A DNA stretch of 64,000 nucleotides from a virus: positions 1 through 64,000 of IMG/VR virus record IMGVR_UViG_3300000117_000009. One strand, 5' to 3'. This document shows positions 23,925-62,484 of this stretch, in pieces (position 1 is the stretch's first letter; each line of letters starts with the position of its first letter). A program made the translations under genes and the position numbers. Under the pieces are notes generated by a model that saw only the letters and a program-made list of their open reading frames with translations, was not told where the DNA came from and made no database searches.

Positions 23925-23953
23925 GTGTAAAAATTAAAAACATATAATATAAT
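23925..23953 (+). promoter_or_regulatory. Early/middle promoter GTGTAAA-N16-TATAAT upstream of ssb-recA operon
   Basis: Same motif and spacing recur at 35500 and 37278, and with N17 at 49580 and 50615. Confidence 0.75.
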
Positions 23954-27539: not shown

Positions 27540-28916
27540 ATGAGTCAAGATAGAAATTTTTCTAAATTTGGAAAGCCTTTTCAAGAAAAAGTTTTTCAAA
27601 GTATGCTAACTGATATTAACTGGTCAGCTCAAATGATTGAGGTTGTAAGCCCAGATTATTTTGATCTAAAGTACCTTTCTTTTTTGTGTGGAAAGTATTT
27701 TTCTTATTATCAAAAATATAAGACGTTTCCTACTTTAGCAATTCTTATTACTATTATTAAAGAAGATCTCTCAAGGTCAAAAGATGCTGTTTTAAGAGAT
27801 CAAATTATAGAATATTTACACAGAATGAAAACAAACCCAGATGTTGGTGATCTTCAATATGTAAAAGATAAGTCTCTAGAGTTTTGTAAGCGTCAAGCCT
27901 TTAGGGACGCACTTGAGCAAAGTGTTGAACTAATTCAAACAGAAAAATATGAGTCTGTAATTAAAATTATGAAAGAAGCAATATCAGTAGGAATGCCAAA
28001 TACTGCAGGCCACAATTTCTTTGATGATATTGAAGCAAGATTTGTACAGATTAATCGACAAGTTTGTCCGACAGGACTAGATAGGATTGATGCTCCGGAT
28101 ATTCTTCGAGGAGGACTTGGCCGAGGAGAGTTAGGTGTAGTTGCAGCAAATACAGGTGTAGGCAAATCTCACTTTTTAGTTGCAATGGGCTGTGCAGCAA
28201 TGAGAGCAGGCAAAAACGTAATCCACTATACATTTGAGCTTTCAGAACATGAAACAGGTAAAAGATATGATTCTCATCTTTGTCATATTCCTTCAAACGA
28301 AGTTATTGAAAGAAAAAGTGAAGTTATTAACAAATACAAAGAAATGGATCTTGGGAAGCTTATTATTAAAGAATACGCAACAGGTTCAGCTTCTGTAATG
28401 ACTTTAAGAAACCATATTGAAAAATTAACCTTAAAAGGTTTTAAGCCAAGCCTAGTAACAGTCGACTACGCTGATGTAATGAAGTCGTCAAAAGCATATG
28501 ATTCTTTAAGGCACGAGCTAAAATTAATCTACACAGAACTTAGAAATCTTGCTGTTGATTTGCAAATACCAATTTGGACAGCTTCACAAGCGAACAAAGA
28601 TTCGTCAAAATCTGATATTGTAGGATTAGAAAATTTAGGTGAGTCTTACGGTAAAGCACAAGTTGCTGATGTTGTTTTGTCAATTAGTAGAAAGCCAATG
28701 GAGAAGTCAACTGGCGGAGGCAGAATATTTGTTGCAAAAAATCGTGCAGGTAGAGATGGTTTGCTATTTCCAATAAATATTGACACAGCACGTTCCAAAT
28801 TTGAAATTCTTGATGACACAGAGCTTAGCTTAAATGAAGCTGTGTCACAAGATAATCATACAATGAAAGAAAAGTTAAGAGAAAAATGGAAAGAGGTAAA
28901 TAAAAAAGATGATTGA
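27540..28916 (+). CDS. Replicative helicase (DnaB/gp41-like)
   Basis: Walker A AANTGVGKS, VDYAD, WTASQAN, AKNRAG. Confidence 0.93.
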   Translation: MSQDRNFSKFGKPFQEKVFQSMLTDINWSAQMIEVVSPDYFDLKYLSFLCGKYFSYYQKYKTFPTLAILITIIKEDLSRSKDAVLRDQIIEYLHRMKTNPDVGDLQYVKDKSLEFCKRQAFRDALEQSVELIQTEKYESVIKIMKEAISVGMPNTAGHNFFDDIEARFVQINRQVCPTGLDRIDAPDILRGGLGRGELGVVAANTGVGKSHFLVAMGCAAMRAGKNVIHYTFELSEHETGKRYDSHLCHIPSNEVIERKSEVINKYKEMDLGKLIIKEYATGSASVMTLRNHIEKLTLKGFKPSLVTVDYADVMKSSKAYDSLRHELKLIYTELRNLAVDLQIPIWTASQANKDSSKSDIVGLENLGESYGKAQVADVVLSISRKPMEKSTGGGRIFVAKNRAGRDGLLFPINIDTARSKFEILDDTELSLNEAVSQDNHTMKEKLREKWKEVNKKDD

Positions 28917-29394
28917 CATTTGTTTAATGGAGAGTTTAAGGTTTTCTTTAAAAGTAAATAATATCAATGTAAAAGATTACATTCCTGCATATAATGGAGA
29001 GAGTGCTGGTCTTGATTTGTTTAACGCCGGTGATAGAATAGTGATTTTACCACAATCAGTTGTTCCTAAAAATAATAAAATTCTTATTGGGACAGGATTG
29101 AAAATGAAAGTTCCAAAAGGATATGTAGCTTTAGTGCAAGAAAGAGGATCAATTACAAAAACCCCTCTAAAAGTAAGAGCAGGAGTTATTGACAGTGGTT
29201 ATACAGGTGAAGTTTTTGTTAATTTAATTAACACGGGCTCTGAAGAATATACACTTGATTCTAATGTCAAACTACCAGTCCAGGTTGTAGTTGTTAAATG
29301 TGATAACGAGTTTGAAATTGTTAGCGAAGAAGAATATTTAAACTTGTCTCGAAATTCTTCAAGAAAAGATGGAAAAGTCGGTAGTTCAGACTAA
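28909..29394 (+). CDS. dut: Trimeric dUTPase
   Basis: SAGLDL, ERGS, AGVIDSGYTGE, RKDGKVGSS. Confidence 0.9.
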   Translation: MIDICLMESLRFSLKVNNINVKDYIPAYNGESAGLDLFNAGDRIVILPQSVVPKNNKILIGTGLKMKVPKGYVALVQERGSITKTPLKVRAGVIDSGYTGEVFVNLINTGSEEYTLDSNVKLPVQVVVVKCDNEFEIVSEEEYLNLSRNSSRKDGKVGSSD

Positions 29395-29409: not shown

Positions 29410-31215
29410 ATGAAAAAAGAATGCTGTGGCATTACTATAGATTTAGGTTACGATAATAATTTAACAGACTTTTCAAAGAAACTTCTTCATGACTACTATA
29501 TGCAAGATCATGAGGAGTCTCCACAAGAAAGTTTTGCTCGTGCTGCAGTAGCATTTTCTTATAACAGCGTAGATCAATCATACGACTTGAGCTTAGCACA
29601 AAGAATATATGATTATGCAGCTAAAGGCTGGTTCATGTTTAGCTCACCAATTTTATCTAATGCCCCTTCACCAGGAGAAACAGAACTTGGTTTACCTATA
29701 TCTTGCTTTTTAACATATGTTGACGATTCCCTAGAAGGATTAATATCCCATTCAGATGAATTGAGATGGATGAGTGTTAAAGGTGGCGGTGTAGGTGGTC
29801 ACTGGAGTTCCATTAGATCAAATAGTAGTATTTCTCCAGGTCCTGTGCCTTTTCTTAAAACAGTTGACAGTGATATGACTGCATATCGTCAAGGTAAAAC
29901 TAGAAAAGGATCATATGCAGCTTATATGGATGTTTCTCATCCTGACATTGTAGAGTTTCTAAGCATCAGACTACCAACAGGTGGTGATGTTAATCGTAAG
30001 TGTTTTAACATTAACAATGCAGTAAATGTTACAGACGAATTTATGGAAGCAGTATCTAAAGGCGATGTCTGGAATTTAATTGATCCTAATGACGGATCTA
30101 TAAGAGATACAATTAGTGCTAGAGAACTGTGGCAAAGAATATTAAAAATAAGATTTAGGACAGGTGAGCCTTACATTAATTTCATTGATGAAGCAAATAG
30201 ACATCTACCACAGTTTCAAAAAGATTTAAATCTTAAAATACACGGATCAAATCTTTGCAACGAAATTCATTTGGCAACATCGCCAGATAGAAGTGCTGTT
30301 TGTTGTTTAAGTTCTTTAAACATTGAAAAGTTTGACGAATGGGAAAATACAGCTATTGTAGAAGACTTAATAGAATACCTTGACAATGTTTTACAGTTTT
30401 TTATAGACAAAGCTCCTGTTCATTTAAATAGAGCAATTAAGTCTGCAAAGCTAGAAAGAAGTCTTGGATTGGGTGCTATGGGTTTCCACGCTTATCTTCA
30501 ATCAAAGAATATCCCGTTTGAATCTGGGATTGCTAAAGCTGCAAATATGAATATATTCTCACTTATACAAGAAAGAGCAAAACAGAAAACAGTGGAGTTG
30601 GCCAGATTAAAAGGAGAATGCCCAGATGCTAACGGGTATGGTGTTAGAAATTCTCATCTTTTGGCAATCGCGCCAAATGCAAATTCTTCAATTATTGCAG
30701 GCACTTCACCCTCTATTGAACCTTGGAAATCAAATGCGTATACTCATAGAACAAGAGTCGGCTCTTATCTTGTTAAAAATCCTCACTTAGAAAAAGTTTT
30801 GTTAGCATACTGTAATGATATTCCAGATGTTAAAAAGAGTGACTGGATTTCTGCACAGTGGAAATCAATCATTTTAACAGAAGGATCTGTTCAACATCTT
30901 GACTATATGTCAGATTGGCACAAACAAGTTTTCAAGACAGCGTTCGAGCTAGATCAGCGATGGATAGTTGATCACGCAGGAGATAGACAAGAGTTTATTT
31001 GTCAAGGTCAGAGTGTTAACTTGTTTTTTCCTGCAGGAACAGAAAAATCTTATGTTAATGCAGTTCATTTAAGAGCTTGGAAAAAGAAGCTAAAAGGTTT
31101 ATACTATCTTAGAACAAATTCAGGTGCTTCAGCAGAAAAAGTAAGTCAAAAAGTAGAGCAGAATAAGCTACAAGACTTCACTGATCCTGATGAGTGTTTG
31201 AGCTGTCAAGGATAA
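29410..31215 (+). CDS. nrdA: Ribonucleotide reductase class I alpha subunit
   Basis: LPISCF, GGGVG, SNLCNEI, AVCCLSS, APNANSS, KGLYYLR, C-terminal CLSCQG. Confidence 0.96.
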   Translation: MKKECCGITIDLGYDNNLTDFSKKLLHDYYMQDHEESPQESFARAAVAFSYNSVDQSYDLSLAQRIYDYAAKGWFMFSSPILSNAPSPGETELGLPISCFLTYVDDSLEGLISHSDELRWMSVKGGGVGGHWSSIRSNSSISPGPVPFLKTVDSDMTAYRQGKTRKGSYAAYMDVSHPDIVEFLSIRLPTGGDVNRKCFNINNAVNVTDEFMEAVSKGDVWNLIDPNDGSIRDTISARELWQRILKIRFRTGEPYINFIDEANRHLPQFQKDLNLKIHGSNLCNEIHLATSPDRSAVCCLSSLNIEKFDEWENTAIVEDLIEYLDNVLQFFIDKAPVHLNRAIKSAKLERSLGLGAMGFHAYLQSKNIPFESGIAKAANMNIFSLIQERAKQKTVELARLKGECPDANGYGVRNSHLLAIAPNANSSIIAGTSPSIEPWKSNAYTHRTRVGSYLVKNPHLEKVLLAYCNDIPDVKKSDWISAQWKSIILTEGSVQHLDYMSDWHKQVFKTAFELDQRWIVDHAGDRQEFICQGQSVNLFFPAGTEKSYVNAVHLRAWKKKLKGLYYLRTNSGASAEKVSQKVEQNKLQDFTDPDECLSCQG

Positions 31216-32515: not shown

Positions 32516-33118
32516 ATGAATTTTTTAACTGAGGTTTCTCCACTGATTAAAACTCTAGAGCTCAAGCAAGAACCTGTTATTATCACTATAAATAACTTTG
32601 ACGAAGAATCAGCTTCTGCTTTTTCTGAAGCTGTTAGCATTGCACATAATACAGGACAAAAAGTTATTCCTGTTATTATTGACTCTTACGGCGGTCAAGC
32701 TTACTCTTTACTCTCGATGATTTCAACTATTAAGTCTTCAACGATTCCTGTTGCAACGATCATTAGAGGTAAAGCTATGTCTTGTGGATCAATCTTAGCA
32801 TGTTTTGGTGACGACGGCCTTAGATTTATGGATAAAGACGCAACACTTATGATTCACGATGTTGCATCAACAGCTTTTGGAAAAGTTGAAGAGCTTAAAG
32901 CAGATGCAAGAGAAGCTGATCGACTTAATAAAAAAGTCTATAAAATGATGGCAAGAAATTGCGGCAAAGCAGATGACTACTTTTTAAATCTTATTCACGA
33001 TAAAGGTCACGCAGATTGGTTTTTAGATGCTGAAGAAGCAAAAGAACATAATTTGGTACAACATTTAAGAGTACCCAATCTAAAAGGAAAAGTTACAGTT
33101 ACAATCGATTTAGAATAA
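32516..33118 (+). CDS. clpP: ClpP-family protease subunit
   Basis: IDSYGG, GKAMSCGS (catalytic Ser), LMIHD, DWFLDAEEA. Confidence 0.88.
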   Translation: MNFLTEVSPLIKTLELKQEPVIITINNFDEESASAFSEAVSIAHNTGQKVIPVIIDSYGGQAYSLLSMISTIKSSTIPVATIIRGKAMSCGSILACFGDDGLRFMDKDATLMIHDVASTAFGKVEELKADAREADRLNKKVYKMMARNCGKADDYFLNLIHDKGHADWFLDAEEAKEHNLVQHLRVPNLKGKVTVTIDLE

Positions 33119-35552: not shown

Positions 35553-36266
35553 ATGACAAATATACACTATCTTTATGACGACAATATAGGTAAAGTTGAA
35601 TTGGTCCAACATATGGGCGAAGACATAACAGTTGTTAACTCTGCTAGAGTATCTTTTGGAGTGCAAAAAGACAATCTAGATATAAAAGATCAGAAACTAA
35701 TTAACTATTTAATTAAGCATAGACACACTTCTACGTTAGAACATAATATTGCAACATTTAGAATTAAAGTGCCGCTATTCGTAAGGTCACAACATCATAG
35801 ACACAGAACATGGTCTTATAATGAAATAAGTAGAAGATATACTGATTCTGATATTAAGTTTTATGAGCCCGTTAGATTTAGAACACAACATAAAAGTAAC
35901 AGACAGGCTTCAAATCTAGAAGACACAATTAATCCTTTAATTAACTATAAAACAGACTATAGCTCACAACTTTATAAAAAAACAGCTTCAGACGCTATTT
36001 GTGATCACCATAAAATCTCACTCAAGCTTTTTGATGACCTATTAGCTTCAGGTATTTGTAGAGAGCAAGCTAGAGGCATTTTACCACAGAATCTCTATAC
36101 AGAATATTATGCAACGGCTAATTTAAATAATATACTAAAGTTTATTAATTTAAGATCACATGAAGGTGCACAGTGGGAAATACAAAGACTATCTGATAGC
36201 ATGTTATCTATTGTAAAAGAACTTTGGCCTGTAACTGTTAATAGTTTTATTAATAACCATAAATAG
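35553..36266 (+). CDS. thyX: FAD-dependent thymidylate synthase (canonical)
   Basis: SARVSF, HRHTSTLEH, RHRTWSYNEISRRY, EQARGILP, LRSHEGAQWEI. Confidence 0.95.
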   Translation: MTNIHYLYDDNIGKVELVQHMGEDITVVNSARVSFGVQKDNLDIKDQKLINYLIKHRHTSTLEHNIATFRIKVPLFVRSQHHRHRTWSYNEISRRYTDSDIKFYEPVRFRTQHKSNRQASNLEDTINPLINYKTDYSSQLYKKTASDAICDHHKISLKLFDDLLASGICREQARGILPQNLYTEYYATANLNNILKFINLRSHEGAQWEIQRLSDSMLSIVKELWPVTVNSFINNHK

Positions 36267-36297: not shown

Positions 36298-36660
36298 ATG
36301 AAAACAAAAATTCTCTTAGAAAGACATAATGATTTAGTTAATACTCTTATAAGATGTCGTATAAAAATTGAAGATCGAGAAGATCCAACCGTCTTAGATA
36401 TAATGACAGATATGAGAGCATTACCAGGAGTTGTAACTGTTAGACAGACAAGACCCATATCAGACACGGTTACGTCTTACGGACACAGACTAATAGAGCT
36501 TAATGTGTCTTATATTCCTGCTTTTATTGAAGATAGTGATCCTTTTATGACAATGATCAGATCTTTAAAAAAAGTTGAAGGTATTGATATGATTAAGGTA
36601 ATGGAACACGACGAACAATCAATTAATGTAAAAATACAGAAAACACCACTAATTATTTGA
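36298..36660 (+). CDS. Hypothetical protein (possible ACT/ferredoxin-like fold) with ILLE leader
   Basis: 120 aa; two helix-GV-strand units (MRALPGVVTV, LKKVEGIDMI). RBS AGGAG. Confidence 0.55.
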   Translation: MKTKILLERHNDLVNTLIRCRIKIEDREDPTVLDIMTDMRALPGVVTVRQTRPISDTVTSYGHRLIELNVSYIPAFIEDSDPFMTMIRSLKKVEGIDMIKVMEHDEQSINVKIQKTPLII

Positions 36661-36670
36661 AAGGAAAAAA

Positions 36671-36895
36671 ATGAATTTAAACGATACAACAATTGCGCAA
36701 ATTGTTAGACTGATACAGATGGCACTTCTTACTGGAACTGATATTGTTGATCACTTAAGAATGTTAATGCTAGAAGTAGATGAAAACCAAAAGCTAGTAA
36801 TTAATAGTGAGTACGAAAGAGTCTTTAATGAGTCACTTGAAAAAATGATGTCTAATATAAGTGAAAGAGAAAGTGAACCTGTTGCAAAAGACTAG
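36671..36895 (+). CDS. Hypothetical protein
   Basis: 74-aa ORF with RBS AAGGA. Confidence 0.6.
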   Translation: MNLNDTTIAQIVRLIQMALLTGTDIVDHLRMLMLEVDENQKLVINSEYERVFNESLEKMMSNISERESEPVAKD

Positions 36896-37268
36896 CTTAG
36901 ATAAACTTGATATTCTCTTTGATAAAAGAGAGACTTTTATGGAACTTATCAAGAAAAAATACCCAGACTCATACAAAGATTGGCCTTTAGACATTTCAGA
37001 GAAAAGTAGTCAAGTTTTACTTAGAGACACTGCGCTCAAAGGCGTCGAAGAAATGTTTGAAGCACTAGGACATTTAAAGAACTGGAAGCCTCATAGAGAT
37101 ACTGATATGCCTGAGATTGATAGAGAAGAATTCTTAGAAGAAATAGTTGATGCCTTTAATTACTTCTTTTCTTTAATAATTTTAATGGGTGTTGATGTTA
37201 ATGAATTTTATAATGCTTTTAATAAAAAAGACGAGATAATAAGAAATAGAATTAAAAGCAACTATTGA
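36861..37268 (+). CDS. All-alpha NTP pyrophosphatase (dimeric dUTPase / T4 gp56 dCTPase / MazG superfamily)
   Basis: EEMFEA...NWKPH...EEIVDAFNY...K..IIRNR..NY. Confidence 0.82.
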   Translation: MKEKVNLLQKTSLDKLDILFDKRETFMELIKKKYPDSYKDWPLDISEKSSQVLLRDTALKGVEEMFEALGHLKNWKPHRDTDMPEIDREEFLEEIVDAFNYFFSLIILMGVDVNEFYNAFNKKDEIIRNRIKSNY

Positions 37269-37277
37269 TTTATTTAC

Positions 37278-37306
37278 GTGTAAATATTAAATTTATAAAT
37301 TATAAT
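37278..37306 (+). promoter_or_regulatory. Promoter GTGTAAA-N16-TATAAT upstream of the ThyX paralog
   Basis: Exact motif, followed by RBS AAGGAG and a TTG start. Confidence 0.75.
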
Positions 37307-37334
37307 AAATTGGTAATAATAAAGGAGATAAATT

Positions 37335-38306
37335 TTGCCAATTAATAATGATCTTAAACAAGTCACTCTTCCAATGGAACTTAAGTTTGACCAAGTTCCT
37401 GTAACTAACTACATTAACAATCTAGAATCACTTAACATTGAACTAATTGATGGCCCTACTAGAGAACAAGCACAAAAAATTGCTTGGCACATGACAAAAG
37501 CAACATGGGCTGATACGCCTGCAGAAACTGCATTTGAAAACTCTACACCTGAAGAGGCTTCTCTTAATCTTCAAGATGTTCTTAATTTTAGAGCTCTTCC
37601 GACGCCGATGGAATGTTTAGGTTTTACTTTTAAAATTAGCGGAATTGATACACAAACAGTAACACATTTAATTAGACATAGAGCAGGTTCTTTTGCAGCA
37701 CAATGTACTGGCGATAGAGACCTTAGAAACGATAATGTTTTAGTTCCTGAGTCTGTTGAAAATTCAGACTTTCATCATCGATTTATTGAAGTTGCTGCTG
37801 CAGCAAAACAACTTTATTCTGATATGGTTGACTCACGTGCTGTATCACTTATGGACGCAAGAGTTATTCTACCTAAAGCATTAGAAACTTTTTATGTTGC
37901 AAGATTTAATCTTAAAGACTTAATTGGTTTTATTCGTCAACGTCAAGATGTACAAATTCAGCCAGAAGTAGACAATATTATTGCAACTCGTATTGCAAAA
38001 ATTGTTTGTACATCAATTCCTGAAGTTTCTACTTGCTTAAACTTTGAAAAACCAGACATGCATTATGTTCGAACTTTCCGTGTTGAATTACCTGACGGTA
38101 CATTTACATCTCGTGGAACAAATCTTTATTATCCAGAGCCTAAAAACGACTTGTTTGAGTTTAACGAAAAAGACGCTATTTATTCATGTCGTCGTGAAGA
38201 AATTAATGGAAACAAGAAAGGTGAAGAAAAAATCTTTACTAGAATGTGGAACGATGATGTTAAAGCTGTAAGACAAATTAGACAAAATTTAGACAGCGAG
38301 TTTTAA
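37335..38306 (+). CDS. Divergent ThyX-family flavoprotein
   Basis: TPMEC.GFTFKISG, HLIRHRAGSF, DARVILP, FIRQRQD..IQPE. Signature altered to RHRAGSFAAQCTGD; C-terminal extension. Confidence 0.8.
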   Translation: MPINNDLKQVTLPMELKFDQVPVTNYINNLESLNIELIDGPTREQAQKIAWHMTKATWADTPAETAFENSTPEEASLNLQDVLNFRALPTPMECLGFTFKISGIDTQTVTHLIRHRAGSFAAQCTGDRDLRNDNVLVPESVENSDFHHRFIEVAAAAKQLYSDMVDSRAVSLMDARVILPKALETFYVARFNLKDLIGFIRQRQDVQIQPEVDNIIATRIAKIVCTSIPEVSTCLNFEKPDMHYVRTFRVELPDGTFTSRGTNLYYPEPKNDLFEFNEKDAIYSCRREEINGNKKGEEKIFTRMWNDDVKAVRQIRQNLDSEF

Positions 38307-38385: not shown

Positions 38386-38835
38386 ATGAAAAAGATTTAT
38401 CTTGCAAGTGGTTGGTTTAATCCAGTTCAAGCAGAAGAACTTACTAATTTAGAGAATATTTTTGATGCAAGATCTGATCATTTTGATCTTGCATCACCTA
38501 GAAGAATTTTTGTTTGTCCTCCTAATGCGCCAAAGGAAGTTCAGGATGAAACTTTTACTGGTAACTTGCACCATATTGAAACAGCAGACTTTTTACTAGT
38601 TAATACTCGCGACAAAGATATTGGCACAATTTGGGAGGCTGGCTATGCATTTGCATTTAAAAAGCCAATTATCTATTTTTGCGCAGGTCTTCCAGAAGGT
38701 GCTAAATTTAATCTTATGTTAGCAAGAAGTGGTATTAAGGTCTGCACATCTTTTGAGCAGCTTGAAGAATACTTGGATAGAGTAATATCTACAGGCGAGC
38801 TACCTAATGAACCTTATGCAGCCGCAATTGAATAA
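38386..38835 (+). CDS. Nucleoside 2-deoxyribosyltransferase / nucleotide N-hydrolase (NDT, DNPH1/MilB family)
   Basis: KIYLASGWF, IETADF, DIGTIWEAGYA (catalytic Glu), FNLML. Confidence 0.88.
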   Translation: MKKIYLASGWFNPVQAEELTNLENIFDARSDHFDLASPRRIFVCPPNAPKEVQDETFTGNLHHIETADFLLVNTRDKDIGTIWEAGYAFAFKKPIIYFCAGLPEGAKFNLMLARSGIKVCTSFEQLEEYLDRVISTGELPNEPYAAAIE

Positions 38836-39094
38836 AAAGTTTTGGTCTTTCAAAGACACAAAAACTCACAAAAGAGTAAAAGAAAAATACTTAATTAAGC
38901 AAGTAATAAGGCTTTTTATTTTTGACAAAAGTTTTTTATTGCAAGTAAAGTGCAAAGAAGACAGAAATAAATTACAATATGTAATACCTTATAAGTTTAT
39001 GTCAAACATATGGCCACGAGGTTTTTACTCCGGCATTTCAGACAGTGGCATTGTTCATTTTACTGACAGTGACATTATACGAGTAATAGGATAA
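38807..39094 (+). CDS. Hypothetical protein
   Basis: 95-aa ORF in operon. Confidence 0.5.
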   Translation: MNLMQPQLNKKFWSFKDTKTHKRVKEKYLIKQVIRLFIFDKSFLLQVKCKEDRNKLQYVIPYKFMSNIWPRGFYSGISDSGIVHFTDSDIIRVIG

Positions 39095-39319: not shown

Positions 39320-40138
39320 TTGCCAGAAGGACCTGAAGTAAAACTTTTTACTGAAAGACTTAATCAAAATTTTCGATATTACATGATTAAGTCTGTTGAA
39401 GTGCTAAGTGGTAGATACATTAAAAAGCCAATACAAAATCTAGAAGCACTAAACGGAAAAGAAATCAAAAGCTTTAATTGTAAAGGAAAGTTTATCTGGT
39501 TTGATTTAGACGATGTAATTGTTTTTAATACTTTAGGAATGACAGGCAGCTGGTCTAGACACAAAACAAAACATTCAAGAATAGCAATTAAATTTTACGA
39601 AAATGATACCGTATACTTTAACGATACAAGAAGCTTTGGTACGTTTCAGATTAAGTCTAGACAAGAACTTTCAAAAAAGTTAAAAAGCTTAGGCCCCGAT
39701 ATGTTGTCTAAGCCACCTGATACTGCAGAATTTATTCCTATATTTAGAAAGAAAAACAACAAAGACATATGCAGTGTTTTAATGAATCAAAACATTATTT
39801 CTGGAGTTGGCAATTATATCAAGGCTGAGTCTTTGTGGTATTCTAAAATTAATCCTCATGCTTTGATAAAAGATTTAACAGACGAAAATTTAGAAACTCT
39901 TAGGAAAGCAATATTGTTTGTTGTAAATAAGTCGTATCAAGAACAAGGTGCTTCAATAAAAGACTATTATACGTTTGATGAAGAAGAAGGCACAGCGACT
40001 GCTGGCTTTGTTGTGTACGGTAAGTCTAAAGATTACAACGGCCACAATGTAATAAAAGAGGAAACACTTGATAAGAGAGCAACTCATTGGGTTAAAGAAA
40101 GACAGATTTATGGAGTTAATCGACCTAAAACCAGGTGA
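39320..40138 (+). CDS. Fpg/Nei-family DNA glycosylase/AP lyase (zincless finger)
   Basis: N-terminal PEGPEV, KGKF, LGMTG, DTRSFG, LGPD, MNQ..ISGVGNY. Confidence 0.93.
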   Translation: MPEGPEVKLFTERLNQNFRYYMIKSVEVLSGRYIKKPIQNLEALNGKEIKSFNCKGKFIWFDLDDVIVFNTLGMTGSWSRHKTKHSRIAIKFYENDTVYFNDTRSFGTFQIKSRQELSKKLKSLGPDMLSKPPDTAEFIPIFRKKNNKDICSVLMNQNIISGVGNYIKAESLWYSKINPHALIKDLTDENLETLRKAILFVVNKSYQEQGASIKDYYTFDEEEGTATAGFVVYGKSKDYNGHNVIKEETLDKRATHWVKERQIYGVNRPKTR

Positions 40139-41104: not shown

Positions 41105-41353
41105 ATGTCATCTTACTCAAAAGGATTAGAAGTTTCTGATCTCGTAACATTTATGCACAAAATTTTTAATAACCAATTTTCAGGCCCACGCACTGCGCTA
41201 GTCTTAAATAGAGAATATCTTTTTGAAAACAAAACAGAATATGGCATTAAAAAGTTTTTTGACTATAAAATGCTAGATACACAAAGTAACAAAGTATATA
41301 ACGTTAAAACAAGAGACATAAAAGTCGTTAAAATTTTAAAAGGAAGCAATTAA
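41105..41353 (+). CDS. Small hypothetical protein (KOW/SH3-like)
   Basis: LEVSDLVTF...TALVL; RBS AAGGA. Confidence 0.5.
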   Translation: MSSYSKGLEVSDLVTFMHKIFNNQFSGPRTALVLNREYLFENKTEYGIKKFFDYKMLDTQSNKVYNVKTRDIKVVKILKGSN

Positions 41354-42339
41354 TGAGAATAGGCATCACTGGTGAAAAAGGTTTTATTGCAACTAACTTG
41401 TCGAAAGAAATTATCAATCAAGGGCATGAATTTGTATCTATTGATAAGTCAGATTACGCTAAGACTCTGATGATATACACAGAAACTGATGAAGTCTGCG
41501 TATATTCTAATAATGCTGAATCCTGGATTCAATTGTTTAAAAGCCTAAATCTTGACTGCATTGTGCATAATGCAGCTGTTGTGGGAACTGATGTTGTTGC
41601 TTTAAATCCTGAGCATTCTATCAACACGAATATTTTAGGCACACAGACAATTGTTGAAGCTGCAAATAGTTGTGACATGCTAATTGTATACACAGGCACA
41701 ACAGTTATTTATGACACGTATAAGTATCAAGAATTTGATATTTTTGAAAATAGTGAAATATTCCCCAGGACAAATTATGCTGTCCAGAAATACGCTGGTG
41801 AGATGCTAGTAAGGAATAATGCAAAAGAGTGGCTTGTTACACGACCTTTATTTGCTTACGGCGGCATTGGTGATATGAACTCTTTAATTGCGAAGTCTTT
41901 ATTTGGCGTTAAAAATGGAATAGAAAACATTGACATATTTTTAGATCCACAAAAAATTAAAGATTATATGCATGTAGAGGACTTTTGTAATAGTGTTGTA
42001 AGGCTAATCGACTCTAGTGTTAGAAATGAAGACTTTAACATTACAGCTAGCAATCCACATAATACTTTAGAAATAGTTTCTATTATAGAAGAAGTTACCG
42101 GTTCAACCTTGGAAATTGTAGTTAAGTGGCACCCAGAAACAGACTATCTAGGAAATCATAGACTGTCTAATCAAAAGTTTGTTGACTTTATGGGCTTTGC
42201 AAATGTTCGAACACTCAGGGAAGGCATTAATCAGTCATGGCAGTCAATAAAAGATGCGAGTGAAAGTTACAATCCCTTAAAATACTTAGATCAAGCTAAG
42301 GCTCAAGATGTCGACTTAAAACAATTTTTTCCTAAGTAG
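41353..42339 (+). CDS. NAD-dependent epimerase/dehydratase (extended SDR, NDP-sugar)
   Basis: GITGEKGFIA, HNAAVVG, NILGT, YAVQK (YxxxK), KDYMHVEDF. Confidence 0.9.
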   Translation: MRIGITGEKGFIATNLSKEIINQGHEFVSIDKSDYAKTLMIYTETDEVCVYSNNAESWIQLFKSLNLDCIVHNAAVVGTDVVALNPEHSINTNILGTQTIVEAANSCDMLIVYTGTTVIYDTYKYQEFDIFENSEIFPRTNYAVQKYAGEMLVRNNAKEWLVTRPLFAYGGIGDMNSLIAKSLFGVKNGIENIDIFLDPQKIKDYMHVEDFCNSVVRLIDSSVRNEDFNITASNPHNTLEIVSIIEEVTGSTLEIVVKWHPETDYLGNHRLSNQKFVDFMGFANVRTLREGINQSWQSIKDASESYNPLKYLDQAKAQDVDLKQFFPK

Positions 42340-54652: not shown

Positions 54653-55543
54653 ATGAGATTTTTCAATATTAATATCGAAGGCCCTGATTGCAGTGGCAAA
54701 ACAACTTTATACAGTCAGCTGCACAAAGAAACTAATTTTAAATATAACATTCAAGACAGAAGTTGTATGTCTATGTTTGTTTATGCAAAGATGTATGGAA
54801 GAGAAGATGCATCACTTTGGTTTGATAAAATTTTAGACGACCTTAAGCGACTAGACACACTTTACATACTTCTTTTACCTTCAGAAAAAACAATTCTTAA
54901 TAGACTACAAAAAAGAGGCGATGATTTTCAAGATAAAGACAGCATTTTAAAAGTAAGAAGTTATTTTAGAAATATTGCAAAAATGGGTTTTGGTTCCTAT
55001 CCTAACGTTTTAGTTTTAGAAGAAGATGATTTAGAAACAAATATAAACAAAACATTACAGTTTATAAACGCTCTAAACGAAATGCCTGGTCAAGAACTAA
55101 TCAAGTCTTTAGTGTTTAGCAGTGGTAGAAATGAATTGATTGATGTACAATGTAAAGAAGAAGTTAATAGAAATCATTTGGATTTAACTGTATTAGACTT
55201 TCCTCAAGAAAAAGAGTATTACGAAAAAATTGAGTTTGAGTTTTTTAATAAAATTTTTAGAGAGTTTGTTGGACTAAACGAACGCAATCAAGCACAAAAG
55301 CATGATAGCAGAAGATTTATCTATACTAGTGATAGTTGTATATCAATGATTCACGTTTTATGGCGCCAAAATAAATTAAATGTATTGGCAACCCTAAGAT
55401 CTTCAAACGTATCAAAAACTTTATGGGCTGATTATGAATTTCTTAAGATACTTAGTGTTAAAACTGCCAAAGAAATGTCTTTACCTGAAGATTGTGTTAT
55501 AAAACTTACAGTTGATATTCGATCGGCACATATAGTACCTTAG
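54653..55543 (+). CDS. dNMP kinase fused to a minimal thymidylate-synthase-fold (dCMP hydroxymethylase-like) domain
   Basis: N-terminus: IEGPDCSGKTT, IQDRS, RLQKRGDD. C-terminus: DSRR, SCISMIH, LRSSNV..LWADY, SAHI. Confidence 0.75.
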   Translation: MRFFNINIEGPDCSGKTTLYSQLHKETNFKYNIQDRSCMSMFVYAKMYGREDASLWFDKILDDLKRLDTLYILLLPSEKTILNRLQKRGDDFQDKDSILKVRSYFRNIAKMGFGSYPNVLVLEEDDLETNINKTLQFINALNEMPGQELIKSLVFSSGRNELIDVQCKEEVNRNHLDLTVLDFPQEKEYYEKIEFEFFNKIFREFVGLNERNQAQKHDSRRFIYTSDSCISMIHVLWRQNKLNVLATLRSSNVSKTLWADYEFLKILSVKTAKEMSLPEDCVIKLTVDIRSAHIVP

Positions 55544-55552
55544 AGAATTTTT

Positions 55553-56125
55553 ATGAACCCACAATTTATAATTTATACTGGCCCGATGTTTGGGTCAAAA
55601 ACAACAAGATTAATGTCTGATATCGATCGATCCTTATATAAAGGTCGTAAAGTAATAGCTTTCAAAGCTAAAAAAGACAATAGATATACAAAAGAAACAA
55701 TTAGTACACATACTGGTGCAACATATCCAGCATTTTGCATAAACCATGCTGAAGAGATATTGTGTTATGTAAACGAAGACATACATAATTCAAACACAAT
55801 AGTCGCTGTTGACGAAGCTTTTATGATTCAGGATATTGACTCTGTTTTGATTTCTTTATATCGTAAAGGTGTTAATATAATTGTGTCATCAATTCAATTA
55901 GACGCAAACGAGATACCTTTTGAGAACATAAAAAACATGATGCCTTGGGCGACAAAAATCGAAATTTGTCCAGCTGTCTGTACGATCTGTGACCAGGATG
56001 CATATTTTACAGAAGCTATGTTTGATATTAACAGTGCAACACAAGAAGAAAGAATTGGCTCGTTTGGAATGTATGAGCCAAGATGTGCAACCCACTACAC
56101 TAGTTTTAGAGAGACTAAAGATTGA
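55553..56125 (+). CDS. tdk: Thymidine kinase (type II)
   Basis: YTGPMFGSKTT, DNRY, VAVDEA, AVCTIC, YEPRCATH. Confidence 0.9.
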   Translation: MNPQFIIYTGPMFGSKTTRLMSDIDRSLYKGRKVIAFKAKKDNRYTKETISTHTGATYPAFCINHAEEILCYVNEDIHNSNTIVAVDEAFMIQDIDSVLISLYRKGVNIIVSSIQLDANEIPFENIKNMMPWATKIEICPAVCTICDQDAYFTEAMFDINSATQEERIGSFGMYEPRCATHYTSFRETKD

Positions 56126-61222: not shown

Positions 61223-61771
61223 ATGAAACTTGACAGCAAGTTAATGCTAAAGCTTTTAAAAGAAGAATACGACAAAAGAATAAACTACTATCTTGGTGAA
61301 GTTGAAACTAGAGCTAAACATAGTCAAGAAGACGGTGAATTGGTGCAAAATGCGAGTGGCTTAAAAGTTAAAGATAGAGCAGGAAACGTGTTTGTAATTG
61401 ATAGACTTGAAGAGCCAGAAGGAGGTGAAATATTAGTTTATTTAATTCCTCCAGGTAGAGAAGATTCAAACTTAAAAATACAAACACCTTCAGCGCCTAT
61501 GAATGATGTTAGAGAGGATAATCTAAGCCAAACTTATAGCTCATTAGAAGTTAATGAAAAAGAAGAAAACGAAAAAGAAGGCAAAAGAAAAATCGATGAT
61601 AAAAAGCCCGATCCTATGAAAAGCGGAGAAATAATCAAGCCAAACCCAAAAGCTAAGACTAAAAAAAGCTTTGACATAAAATCAAATGTTGAAAGCATAG
61701 ACTCTTATGAAGAGGTTAACGGGAGAATAGTTATAACATTAAAACAACTAGATAAGGACTTTACACTATGA
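61223..61771 (+). CDS. Hypothetical protein with LLKE leader
   Basis: 182 aa; RBS AGGAG; ATAATTA at 61191. Confidence 0.6.
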   Translation: MKLDSKLMLKLLKEEYDKRINYYLGEVETRAKHSQEDGELVQNASGLKVKDRAGNVFVIDRLEEPEGGEILVYLIPPGREDSNLKIQTPSAPMNDVREDNLSQTYSSLEVNEKEENEKEGKRKIDDKKPDPMKSGEIIKPNPKAKTKKSFDIKSNVESIDSYEEVNGRIVITLKQLDKDFTL

Positions 61772-62484
61772 ATAAACTAGAAGATATAATCAGTAAAGCT
61801 GTGAGTGATACTTTGCAAGAAAAAGGTGTTAACAATCATCATAATAAAAAGATAGAAAACCTTAATGAATCATATGTAACGCAAGTTGGAAGCTTTAATT
61901 TGCAAACTGAACTTCTTTCTTCAAAAACTAAAAAAGCACATCAACAACTTTTAAAAGGCTATGTAGAAACATTAAACAAAATTTCAGCAAGTTTAGACGG
62001 TGTTGACAAGTCTTCAGCAAACTTAAACATGTCTGCTTTTCGATCTCTTAAGATAGATGAAACATACAATCATAATGCTGCTTTTCTTCATGGTTTGTAT
62101 TTTGAAAACATTAGCGACTTAAGCAGTAATATTTCTGTTGACTCTTTGGCTTATATGCGACTTTCAAGAGACTTTGGCAGCTTTGATGCTTGGCAAGAAG
62201 ATTTTGTTGCTTGTTGCTTGTCAGCTAGAAACGGTTGGGCAATAACTGCATATAATACTCATTTGCAAAGATTTGTTAATACAGTTGTTGACTTACATAG
62301 TTTAAATGTAATGACTGGTATTTATCCAGTTATTATTATGGATTGTTGGGAACATAGCTATTATAGAGACTATTTAAAAGATAGAAAATCATATGTTTTT
62401 GGTATGATGAAAGAATTAAACTGGGAAGTAATAGAAAATAGAATTAAAAAAGCTGATGCGATAGCAAAAATAATTAAAGGTTAA
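61768..62484 (+). CDS. Fe/Mn superoxide dismutase-family protein with N-terminal extension
   Basis: AHQQLLKGYVETLN, LHGLYFENI, DFGSFDAW, NGWA, DCWEHSYYRDY; all four metal ligands are present. Confidence 0.88.
   Translation: MNKLEDIISKAVSDTLQEKGVNNHHNKKIENLNESYVTQVGSFNLQTELLSSKTKKAHQQLLKGYVETLNKISASLDGVDKSSANLNMSAFRSLKIDETYNHNAAFLHGLYFENISDLSSNISVDSLAYMRLSRDFGSFDAWQEDFVACCLSARNGWAITAYNTHLQRFVNTVVDLHSLNVMTGIYPVIIMDCWEHSYYRDYLKDRKSYVFGMMKELNWEVIENRIKKADAIAKIIKG

Follow-up and report, generated by a model that had tools for sequence, protein, structure and literature searches.

Why would a phage that encodes an ordinary flavin-dependent thymidylate synthase carry, close beside it, a second ThyX-like gene in which the residues behind the thymidylate synthase reaction have been replaced? 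The question is raised by 64,000 nucleotides of virus DNA (positions 1 to 64,000 of IMG/VR record IMGVR_UViG_3300000117_000009; this whole stretch is called the window below), in which two genes of the ThyX family lie on the same strand:

35553..36266, + strand: canonical ThyX, 237 aa (PF02511 158 bits; TIGR02170 169.6 bits, above the cut-off)
37335..38306, + strand: ThyX-like paralog, 323 aa (PF02511 70.6 bits; TIGR02170 53.4 bits; AlphaFold2 model with pLDDT 95.2; Z 15-17 against solved ThyX structures)

To our knowledge, ThyX is known for a single reaction, the flavin- and folate-dependent methylation of dUMP (of UMP in PolB). The comparisons described here make it likely that the paralog carries out a different reaction, because its flavin motif is kept, the folate-stacking histidine and the Ser/Arg/Tyr triad are lost, a normal ThyX is present and the gene is under purifying selection. 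At slightly better than even confidence, we favor the reading that the paralog is an active, neofunctionalised ThyX-fold flavoenzyme acting in a pre-replicative pathway for an altered pyrimidine, and that it is not the phage's thymidylate synthase.

The record that holds the window is 107 kb long and about 42% complete, and it belongs to an uncultured giant marine myophage encoding a tail sheath, a UvsX-like recombinase, a DnaB-type helicase, a class I ribonucleotide reductase and a DnaE-type polymerase. The window stretch is present as assembled contigs in 20 marine or seawater metagenome runs from 8 studies, with no RNA run among them.

A ThyX fold with a rebuilt active site

The paralog is a member of the Thy1 family (PF02511, 70.6 bits against a cut-off of 24.8), and it falls short of the NCBI thyX equivalog level (TIGR02170, 53.4 bits against a cut-off of 87.9), which the canonical copy exceeds with 169.6 bits. 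The two window proteins give no significant BLASTP alignment with each other (best E 5.9), and their kinship is visible through profiles and fold only. An AlphaFold model built from 42 family members has structural matches exclusively in the ThyX family (Foldseek 1e-12 to 1e-10, with 1.7e-12 to 3gwc), and comparison with solved ThyX structures gives Z scores of up to 17.0 over about 190-216 residues. An initial annotation, made from the sequence alone, had called the protein a ThyX paralog with its flavin motif kept, had listed motif differences between the two copies and had reported loss of the folate-stacking histidine. All of the quoted strings are present in the open reading frames (ORFs) at 35553-36266 and 37335-38306, and the family and structure scores given above, together with the residue mapping that follows, bear out the other two statements.

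Residues were mapped by HMMER alignment to Thermotoga maritima ThyX (PDB chain 3g4c), whose numbering is used for ThyX positions. The paralog retains RHR78-80 as R114-H115-R116, T55 as T90, E58 as E93, S83 as S119, R147 as R176 and R174 as R203. At the FAD site, R114-H115-R116, T90 and E93 are therefore present, with K194 at the R165 position, and so are three of the arginines that hold dUMP in ThyX (R114, R176 and R203). Ahead of the RHR motif, His53 is replaced by Leu88, His59 by Cys94 and Gln75 by His111; beyond it, Glu86 has become Ala122, Ser88 Cys124, Arg90 Gly126 and Tyr91 Asp127. A new arginine, Arg128, lies two positions past the lost Arg90, and the Ser88-x-Arg90-Tyr91 of ThyX accordingly reads Cys-x-Gly-Asp-Arg. 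The ThyX motif RHRxxSxxxxSxR(Y) is thus incomplete, with RHR and the first Ser in place and the second Ser, the Arg and the Tyr exchanged for Cys, Gly and Asp. Three of the four phosphate ligands are gone in the paralog's clade, where the equivalent of Mycobacterium tuberculosis R87 is Thr, S88 is Cys and R90 is Gly. The segments concerned are as follows:

37587..37616, + strand: segment F85-C94, with Leu88 for the folate-stacking His53, the FAD contacts T90 and E93 (T55, E58) kept, and C94 for His59 (3g4c alignment)
37674..37682, + strand: RHR flavin motif, R114-H115-R116 (alignment to 3g4c and relatives)
37689..37721, + strand: rebuilt catalytic loop S119-D129 (S-F-A-A-Q-C-T-G-D-R-D), replacing S83...E86-x-S88-x-R90-Y91 (invariant in 177 sequences)
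37854..37874, + strand: D-A-R-x-I-L-P motif with R176, equivalent to the dUMP phosphate ligand R147 (alignments)
37938..37967, + strand: Q-R-Q-D-x-Q-I-Q-P-E motif with R203, equivalent to R174 (alignments)
38052..38303, + strand: family-specific C-terminal insertion or extension, residues 240-323, with a conserved Y-x-P267 and a terminal helix at 300-322 (alignment, AlphaFold2 model, structure comparison)

Ser88 and Tyr91 of ThyX are strictly conserved and critical, both adjoining the hydroxyl of the flavin carbinolamine, and Arg90 tunes Tyr91 (PMC11940539). Together with the 3g4c alignment, these roles identify the residues lost in the paralog as those of methylene transfer. The kept flavin contacts and three arginines, combined with the lost folate histidine and triad, would fit an active site in which a polarised pyrimidine is still stacked on reduced flavin and folate is not needed. 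From the sequence, the initial annotation had suggested a folate-independent flavin redox reaction (hydroxylation or reduction) on a different nucleotide, which is supported in part. A changed reaction is likely; independence of folate is less certain, since Cys, Asp and Arg could fill the places of Ser, Tyr and Arg, and so is a nucleotide other than dUMP, given the three arginines, while hydroxylation or reduction would be conjecture.

The initial annotation also described the S-x-R-Y loop as lost, with a cysteine appearing there. Replacement of Ser, Arg and Tyr stands, as does the cysteine (C124 at the S88 position), although the loop is better described as rebuilt, being invariant in 177 relatives and carrying a new arginine. 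A C-terminal extension of about 85 aa, likewise proposed, proved to be part of the picture: the paralog has about 60-85 additional residues near its C-terminus and also about 25-45 at its N-terminus. In comparisons with ThyX structures, the N-terminal 25-30 residues and most of 240-300 remain unaligned. Structural alignments often match the final helix (about 300-312) to the one that ends canonical ThyX, and part of the C-terminal "extension" may therefore be an insertion. The family-specific residues W58 and P267 sit in these added N- and C-terminal segments.

A selected and largely viral clade

Among 177 unique relatives with 58-96% identity to the paralog, 79 positions are invariant, including the whole loop S119-D129, H111, E93, C94, W58, K194 and R203. 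L88 is almost so, with Leu in place of the folate-stacking His in 176 of the 177. Values of dN/dS between the paralog and six relatives are 0.04-0.12, and one relative (P0266, 700 aa) carries an intein inside the R174 motif. Loop invariance, low dN/dS and the position of the intein together argue that the new loop is a selected, working active site and not a decaying copy.

A word-indexed search returned 1059 clusters at 90% identity, and HMMER, run exhaustively against 1.8 billion representatives, gave 718 matches (50%-identity clusters) at E <= 1e-3, with 140 at E <= 1e-10; among the 150 best-scoring matches, most full-length members are about 280-350 aa long. With the window's canonical ThyX as root of the tree, a clade without canonical sequences (support 0.88) takes in 100 of 109 representatives. 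Cys at position 88 accompanies Asp or Glu at position 91 in 56 of the 109, and all 56 have a hydrophobic residue for His53. The window paralog shares the traits of this clade, namely Leu for His53, C/G/D for S88/R90/Y91, an N-terminal A-T-W, a C-terminal Y-x-P and a length of about 300-350 aa. The nearest ESM Atlas clusters are 86-97% viral, and the paralog's family appears to be a large, almost wholly viral clade, of which we found no description in the searched literature. A branch of this kind, which has exchanged exactly the residues behind the ThyX reaction and holds the new ones under strong selection, is a reason why the locus matters.

The clade is not uniform. Gln75 is replaced by His in the window's sub-clade, whereas another retains T-H-Q with the loop S-Q-Q-C-S/T-G-D/E, and a third has G-G-R-D-N; clade b keeps the equivalent of M. 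tuberculosis R87. Across the family, the first Arg of RHR alone is invariant, and the His is often Y, T, Q, N or S. Among cultured phages, a full-length close relative (42.6% identity) is present in Geobacillus phage GR1 alone, and GR1 makes the question accessible at the bench.

A search for longer fused forms of the protein (567-2000 aa) found none. One shorter representative, P0134 (551 aa), is a GT2-ThyX-like fusion whose N-terminal domain matches the glycosyltransferase family PF00535 at 22.1 bits, just below the cut-off of 23.3, and the C-terminal region of P0152 (515 aa) looks by eye like an HNH-type endonuclease. Scans for related loci gave none with P0153 as query and one with P0164.

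Coexistence with canonical thymidylate synthases

Coexistence of the paralog with a canonical ThyX, as seen by the initial annotation in the window, extends to complete genomes. Two complete jumbo-phage records, G001 (239 kb) and G003 (284 kb), contain both genes, as do G010 and the record of the window, and a canonical ThyX lies within 10 kb of the ThyX-like gene in 42 of the 81 loci of the window lineage (80 IMG/VR loci plus GR1). Moreover, a match to canonical ThyX or ThyA accompanies the ThyX-like gene in five metagenome-assembled genomes (MAGs), 0.4-1.1 Mb in size and for the most part labelled Patescibacteria, although the cassette contigs in them may be phage and the completeness of the MAGs is not stated. 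This coexistence argues against simple redundancy, and it suggests that the paralog does something other than the canonical enzyme in the jumbo phages, in the window's record and in the small MAGs.

The gene neighborhood in the window lineage

The initial annotation considered the paralog pair only, and the informative context is the conserved cassette to which the paralog belongs. Its partners and other genes of interest in the window are listed here:

36861..37268, + strand: all-alpha MazG/dUTPase_2-type NTP pyrophosphatase, the steady upstream partner (phrog_12184, 1.4e-16)
38386..38835, + strand: nucleoside 2-deoxyribosyltransferase (NDT) family gene, directly downstream (PF05014, 46.8 bits)
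39320..40138, + strand: Fpg/Nei-family DNA glycosylase (PF01149, PF06831; in 43 of 81 loci)
41353..42339, + strand: SDR-type NDP-sugar epimerase/dehydratase (PF01370, 97.6 bits; in 65 of 81 loci)
54653..55543, + strand: thymidylate-kinase-like kinase fused to a half-size ThyA-like domain, called the miniTS, with the motifs SRR / C-I-S / R-S-S-N / D / H (phrog_761, 5.8e-18)
55553..56125, + strand: thymidine kinase, directly after the kinase-miniTS gene (PF00265, 112 bits)
28909..29394, + strand: trimeric dUTPase (PF00692, 46.6 bits)

The MazG-type pyrophosphatase is found in 68 of the 81 loci and stands directly upstream of the ThyX-like gene in distant clades too; were it merely a dUTPase, it would be redundant in the window, which has a trimeric dUTPase. 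The NDT gene adjoins the ThyX-like gene downstream in 79 of the 81 loci, and the window's copy has the true transferase 6evs as its best PDB match and retains the Glu of W-E-x-G. In many relatives, although not in the window, a fusion of dUTPase_2 with an NT5C/HAD 5'-deoxynucleotidase lies between the MazG and ThyX-like genes (for example L010:8998-9906, L067:8860-9762, L074:9020-9958 and L119:1426-2379). Comparison with PHROGs and Pfam gave no match for the window ORFs 36298-36660, 36671-36895 and 38807-39094, nor for the relatives' ORFs of about 216 and 130 aa between MazG and the ThyX-like gene.

Two short elements precede the paralog:

37278..37306, + strand: promoter-like motif GTGTAAA-N16-19-WATAAT (6 copies in the window against 0.08 expected)
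37322..37327, + strand: Shine-Dalgarno sequence AAGGAG, 7 nt before the TTG start (read from the sequence)

The TTG start is supported by this Shine-Dalgarno sequence and by the conserved N-terminus of homologues, "MP.NN.L". Copies of the promoter-like motif lie on the + strand at 23925, 35500, 37278, 40911, 49580 and 50615, and the genes preceded by one are thyX, the paralog, dnaE and a gp32-like gene. The motif probably represents an early/middle class of phage promoters, and its common use would fit expression of the paralog together with replication genes.

The miniTS and its kinase

The window's record gives no match to the ThyA family PF00303, and the paralog itself has the ThyX fold. 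The miniTS retains the S-R-R, catalytic Cys, R-S and His of ThyA, and it has Asp at the N177 position, a residue that on sequence grounds marks probable cytosine specificity. An exchange of Asp for Asn at position 169 is diagnostic of flavin/O2-dependent 5-hydroxy-dCMP synthases (PMC13326640). This mark, seen as R-S-S-N, is present in the miniTS of the window and of GR1, and many other miniTS domains keep Asp or Glu at 169. The Cys146/N177D/D169N signature of the 5-hydroxy-dCMP synthases is thus found in the window in a miniTS domain separate from the ThyX-like protein.

The kinase-miniTS gene co-occurs with the ThyX-like gene in four of five large records, the fifth being 61% complete. When loci were retrieved with the miniTS, the usual order in the 42 obtained was MazG, MazG, ThyX-like, NDT, SDR, DnaE, kinase-miniTS, SDR; a ThyX-like gene lies within the 10-kb flank in most of them, and nearly all have a thymidine kinase homologue, mostly just downstream of the kinase-miniTS gene.

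Cassettes in distant phages and MAG contigs

Besides marine jumbo phages, carriers of the cassette include small phages from freshwater or soil, a thermophilic phage in culture and MAG contigs labelled Patescibacteria. Across these settings the ThyX-like gene recurrently accompanies a MazG-type pyrophosphatase and a thymidylate-kinase-like kinase and/or miniTS, often together with an NDT, a thymidine kinase, a gene resembling uracil-DNA glycosylase (UDG), an epimerase or glycosyltransferases, and it is the one constant thymidylate-synthase-like member. In clade-b phage contigs (35-95 kb), MazG and the ThyX-like gene are followed either by a miniTS on its own or by a kinase, which in some cases has a weakly UDG-like C-terminal half. 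In some small phages, P-loop kinases with such a half, whose UDG-superfamily match is below threshold, follow the ThyX-like gene at L087:10734-11813, L088:4564-5547, L091:11130-12017 and L098:10897-11772; a stand-alone UDG-family gene (43.8 bits) does so at L122:10817-11410.

The order in GR1 is kinase, RNase H, nitroreductase, ThyX-like gene and an unannotated ORF of 151 aa whose start overlaps the ThyX-like stop. This "hypothetical protein" (L001:9969-10424; 29720-30175 of the record) aligns with the miniTS motifs R-Q, C-I-S, R-S-S-N, D and H. GR1 also encodes two NDT proteins, a glycosyltransferase, an HD protein and a thymidine kinase. The Geobacillus host of GR1 has a G+C content near 52%, and the distance of the phage from this value would be a wide composition gap for a phage called temperate. 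The G+C content of GR1 itself is 32.3% (GR1 paper, OK896991.1). That record annotates no thymidylate synthase besides the ThyX-like gene, and the GR1 paper makes no mention of DNA modification.

In GTDB, MAGs that for the most part carry the label Patescibacteria have the same operon, in some cases on contigs as long as 135, 159 and 453 kb. Its genes run GT1, APH-like phosphotransferase, kinase, MazG fusion, ThyX-like, kinase, miniTS, UDG-superfamily, GT2 and NUDIX. Translationally coupled examples occur at L210:3864-11811 and L212:6461-10754 and in L215, L214, L209 and L213. Since IMG/VR classes one related record as a provirus, these MAG copies may be prophages, or else phage contigs that were binned wrongly. 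Many clade-b and MAG cassettes lack the NDT and have a dNMP kinase instead.

A possible pathway

Gene families and gene order suggest the first and last steps of how such a cassette could work, and the steps between them are inferred. The upstream MazG-type pyrophosphatase would convert a dNTP to the dNMP, and the MazG-nucleotidase fusion of the relatives could carry it on to the nucleoside. In the ThyX-like protein, FAD would be held by R114/H115/R116, T90 and E93, and a pyrimidine nucleotide would be stacked on the flavin by R114, R176 and R203. Normal reductive methylation would not be expected, because the folate histidine and the Ser88/Arg90/Tyr91 triad, which activates the flavin carbinolamine, are lost. 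Reduced flavin might instead act with the new Cys124/Asp127/Arg128 loop, and our best guess for the chemistry, being the simplest candidate, is C5 hydroxylation through a flavin hydroperoxide, for which a flavin/O2 hydroxylase derived from the ThyA scaffold provides a precedent (PMC13326640). Alternatively, a one-carbon transfer could end in hydration. Other candidate chemistries are one-carbon transfer in which Cys, Asp and Arg stand in for the lost residues, oxidation of dTMP in a reverse-type reaction, and reduction. The half-size, cytosine-type ThyA domain may act with the ThyX-like protein or beside it, after which the thymidylate-kinase-like kinase would phosphorylate the product, the phage DnaE would incorporate it, and in some lineages glycosyltransferases may add sugars to it. 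As to the base, thymidine kinase, NT5C, dUTPase_2 and UDG point to uracil or thymine, and the Asp of the miniTS points to cytosine.

A more specific version, which we regard as tentative and on balance doubtful, is that the ThyX-like protein and the miniTS form a two-protein flavin system, or are parallel enzymes, adding a hydroxyl or hydroxymethyl group to one or both pyrimidine deoxynucleotides and giving rise to glycosylatable DNA. If so, this would be the first non-thymidylate chemistry of the ThyX fold in DNA metabolism, and it would imply non-canonical pyrimidines in abundant marine jumbo phages, in phages or prophages on the Patescibacteria-labelled MAG contigs and in GR1. More generally, if a new DNA pyrimidine is made, an enzyme class would be added to the anti-restriction chemistry of phages, the puzzling half-size ThyA domains would be explained, and a new flavoenzyme for making modified nucleotides might be available.

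Weighing the alternatives

Several observations weigh against a neofunctionalised flavoenzyme. The combination of a thymidylate-kinase-type kinase, a dUTPase_2-type pyrophosphatase and UDG resembles an ordinary set for dTTP supply and uracil exclusion, and T. maritima S88A and S88C mutants retain some activity. A search of the 107-kb record around the window, itself only about 42% complete, gave no match to PF00535 (GT2) or PF03167 (UDG). The RHR histidine, T55 and the R165 position differ across the wider family, and flavin binding is thus not assured everywhere; similarly, Cys124 is S, T, A or G in some clades, which argues against a universally essential nucleophile. Finally, the ThyX-like gene is the sole thymidylate-synthase-like gene in the complete small phages G006, G007 and G009, in the 80%-complete G008 and likewise in GR1, and neither ThyA nor miniTS was detected in G006, G007, G009 or G008 in searches run with a positive control. 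It is possible that the protein serves as a divergent thymidylate synthase in those phages that have it alone. A genuine but divergent synthase converting dUMP to dTMP would have Cys, Asp and Arg doing the jobs of Ser88, Tyr91 and Arg90, with dUTPase, synthase and thymidylate kinase as neighbors. The Thy1 fold with R78, R147 and R174 kept speaks for this, as do the upstream dUTPase_2-type gene, the match of the kinase to the thymidylate kinase phrog_761 and the UDG of some cassettes. We nevertheless think it rather unlikely, because a canonical ThyX or ThyA stands alongside in complete jumbo-phage records and in MAGs of up to 1.1 Mb, the window also has a trimeric dUTPase, the score lies under the thyX equivalog cut-off, and the residues critical for methylene transfer are all replaced together with the folate histidine. 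Moreover, the adjoining MazG-nucleotidase fusions would destroy dUMP and dTMP, and the cassette includes glycosyltransferases and a cytosine-type miniTS. It is very improbable that the protein is without catalysis and persists as a relic or as a regulator that binds nucleotides: the canonical catalytic residues are indeed lost, but the 79 invariant residues include the entire new loop, dN/dS is low, an intein occupies an active-site motif in one relative, and synteny is kept across unrelated phages.

The partnership with the miniTS deserves separate consideration, since the ThyX-like protein might serve it as the flavin-bearing partner, supplying reduced flavin or a flavin adduct while the miniTS Cys activates dCMP, so that the two make up a split hydroxylase or one-carbon transferase. 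The miniTS has its Cys and is without the cofactor half; it is directly downstream of the ThyX-like gene or translationally coupled to it in GR1, clade b and the MAG cassettes, and the two co-occur in the large records and at most of the 42 kinase-miniTS loci. The R-S-S-N mark and the nitroreductase-type gene just upstream in GR1, a putative flavin reductase, would suit such a division of labor, and full-size relatives bind FMN loosely (PMC13326640). It is unlikely, however, because the nucleotide-binding arginines are kept in the ThyX-like protein's own site, many miniTS domains have Asp or Glu at 169, and no ThyX-like/miniTS fusion was found among 150 representatives. The complete or near-complete genomes G006-G009, with a ThyX-like gene and no detectable miniTS, weaken the idea that the paralog is a mere partner and indicate that it can work without one. 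Another possibility is that the substrate is a deoxynucleoside or a free base instead of a 5'-monophosphate, in a base-swap salvage with NDT, the nucleotidase fusion and thymidine kinase. Loss of three phosphate ligands in the paralog's clade, the nearly constant adjacency of NDT, the MazG-NT5C fusions of relatives and a thymidine kinase conserved in the module and in GR1 agree with this. It appears improbable in view of R176 (equivalent to R147) being kept, the new Arg128 in the loop, the R87 equivalent retained in clade b, and the many clade-b and MAG cassettes in which NDT is missing and a dNMP kinase follows instead.

Relation to known systems

Compared with ThyX/FDTS, the flavin-dependent thymidylate synthases (EC 2.1.1.148; T. 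maritima TM0449, M. tuberculosis ThyX; PF02511, TIGR02170), the paralog shares the fold, RHR and the equivalents of T55, E58, R147 and R174. It differs in having Leu for His53, His for Gln75, Ala for E86 and C-x-G-D-R for S88-x-R90-Y91, as well as extra terminal segments, a score below the equivalog level and a canonical copy alongside. A precedent for recruitment of a ThyX paralog to make a modified pyrimidine nucleotide is PolB, the UMP/dUMP C5-methylase of polyoxin biosynthesis (PDB 4p5a, 4p5b; PMC5954106), to which the window paralog compares with Z 16.3 and an rmsd of 2.2. Unlike the enzyme proposed here, PolB still methylates with folate and flavin, and it belongs to bacterial secondary metabolism and not to a phage DNA pathway.

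The 5-hydroxy-dCMP synthases RB69 gp48 and DLP3 gp80 (PMC13326640) show that a thymidylate synthase scaffold can become a flavin-dependent hydroxylase, and their cassettes follow the same logic, with a dedicated dNMP kinase, NDP-sugar enzymes and DNA glycosyltransferases (PMC13326640). Those enzymes have the ThyA fold, whereas here the ThyA member is half-size and accompanied or replaced by the ThyX-like protein. The cassette is laid out like a pre-replicative pathway of the T4 or RB69 type, with optional sugar enzymes and glycosyltransferases. In T4, cytosine replacement uses gp56 dCTPase, gp42 dCMP hydroxymethylase, gp1 dNMP kinase and glucosyltransferases; common to both systems are a pyrophosphatase, a C5-modifying thymidylate-synthase-like enzyme, a kinase and optional glycosylation. 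The present cassette departs from T4 in its ThyX-fold modifier and in its NDT, thymidine kinase, nucleotidase fusion and UDG-like genes. In the nucleoside-antibiotic pathways of MilA/MilB and BcmA/BcmB, a thymidylate-synthase-like hydroxymethylase works with an NDT-family N-glycosidase, which resembles the present pairing of a C5-modifying thymidylate-synthase-type enzyme with a deoxyribosyltransferase-family member. There, however, the enzyme is of the ThyA fold, acts on CMP and leads to a free base for an antibiotic, whereas here the NDT resembles 6evs and the setting is phage replication.

Other features of the loci

In several relatives (L168, L173, L069 and others), dnaE appears as two to four consecutive ORFs, which points to inteins, to endonuclease genes inserted there or to polymerase genes that are split. 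The window also encodes a protein with an Fe/Mn superoxide dismutase C-terminal domain (61768-62484) and a ClpP-family protease (32516-33118).

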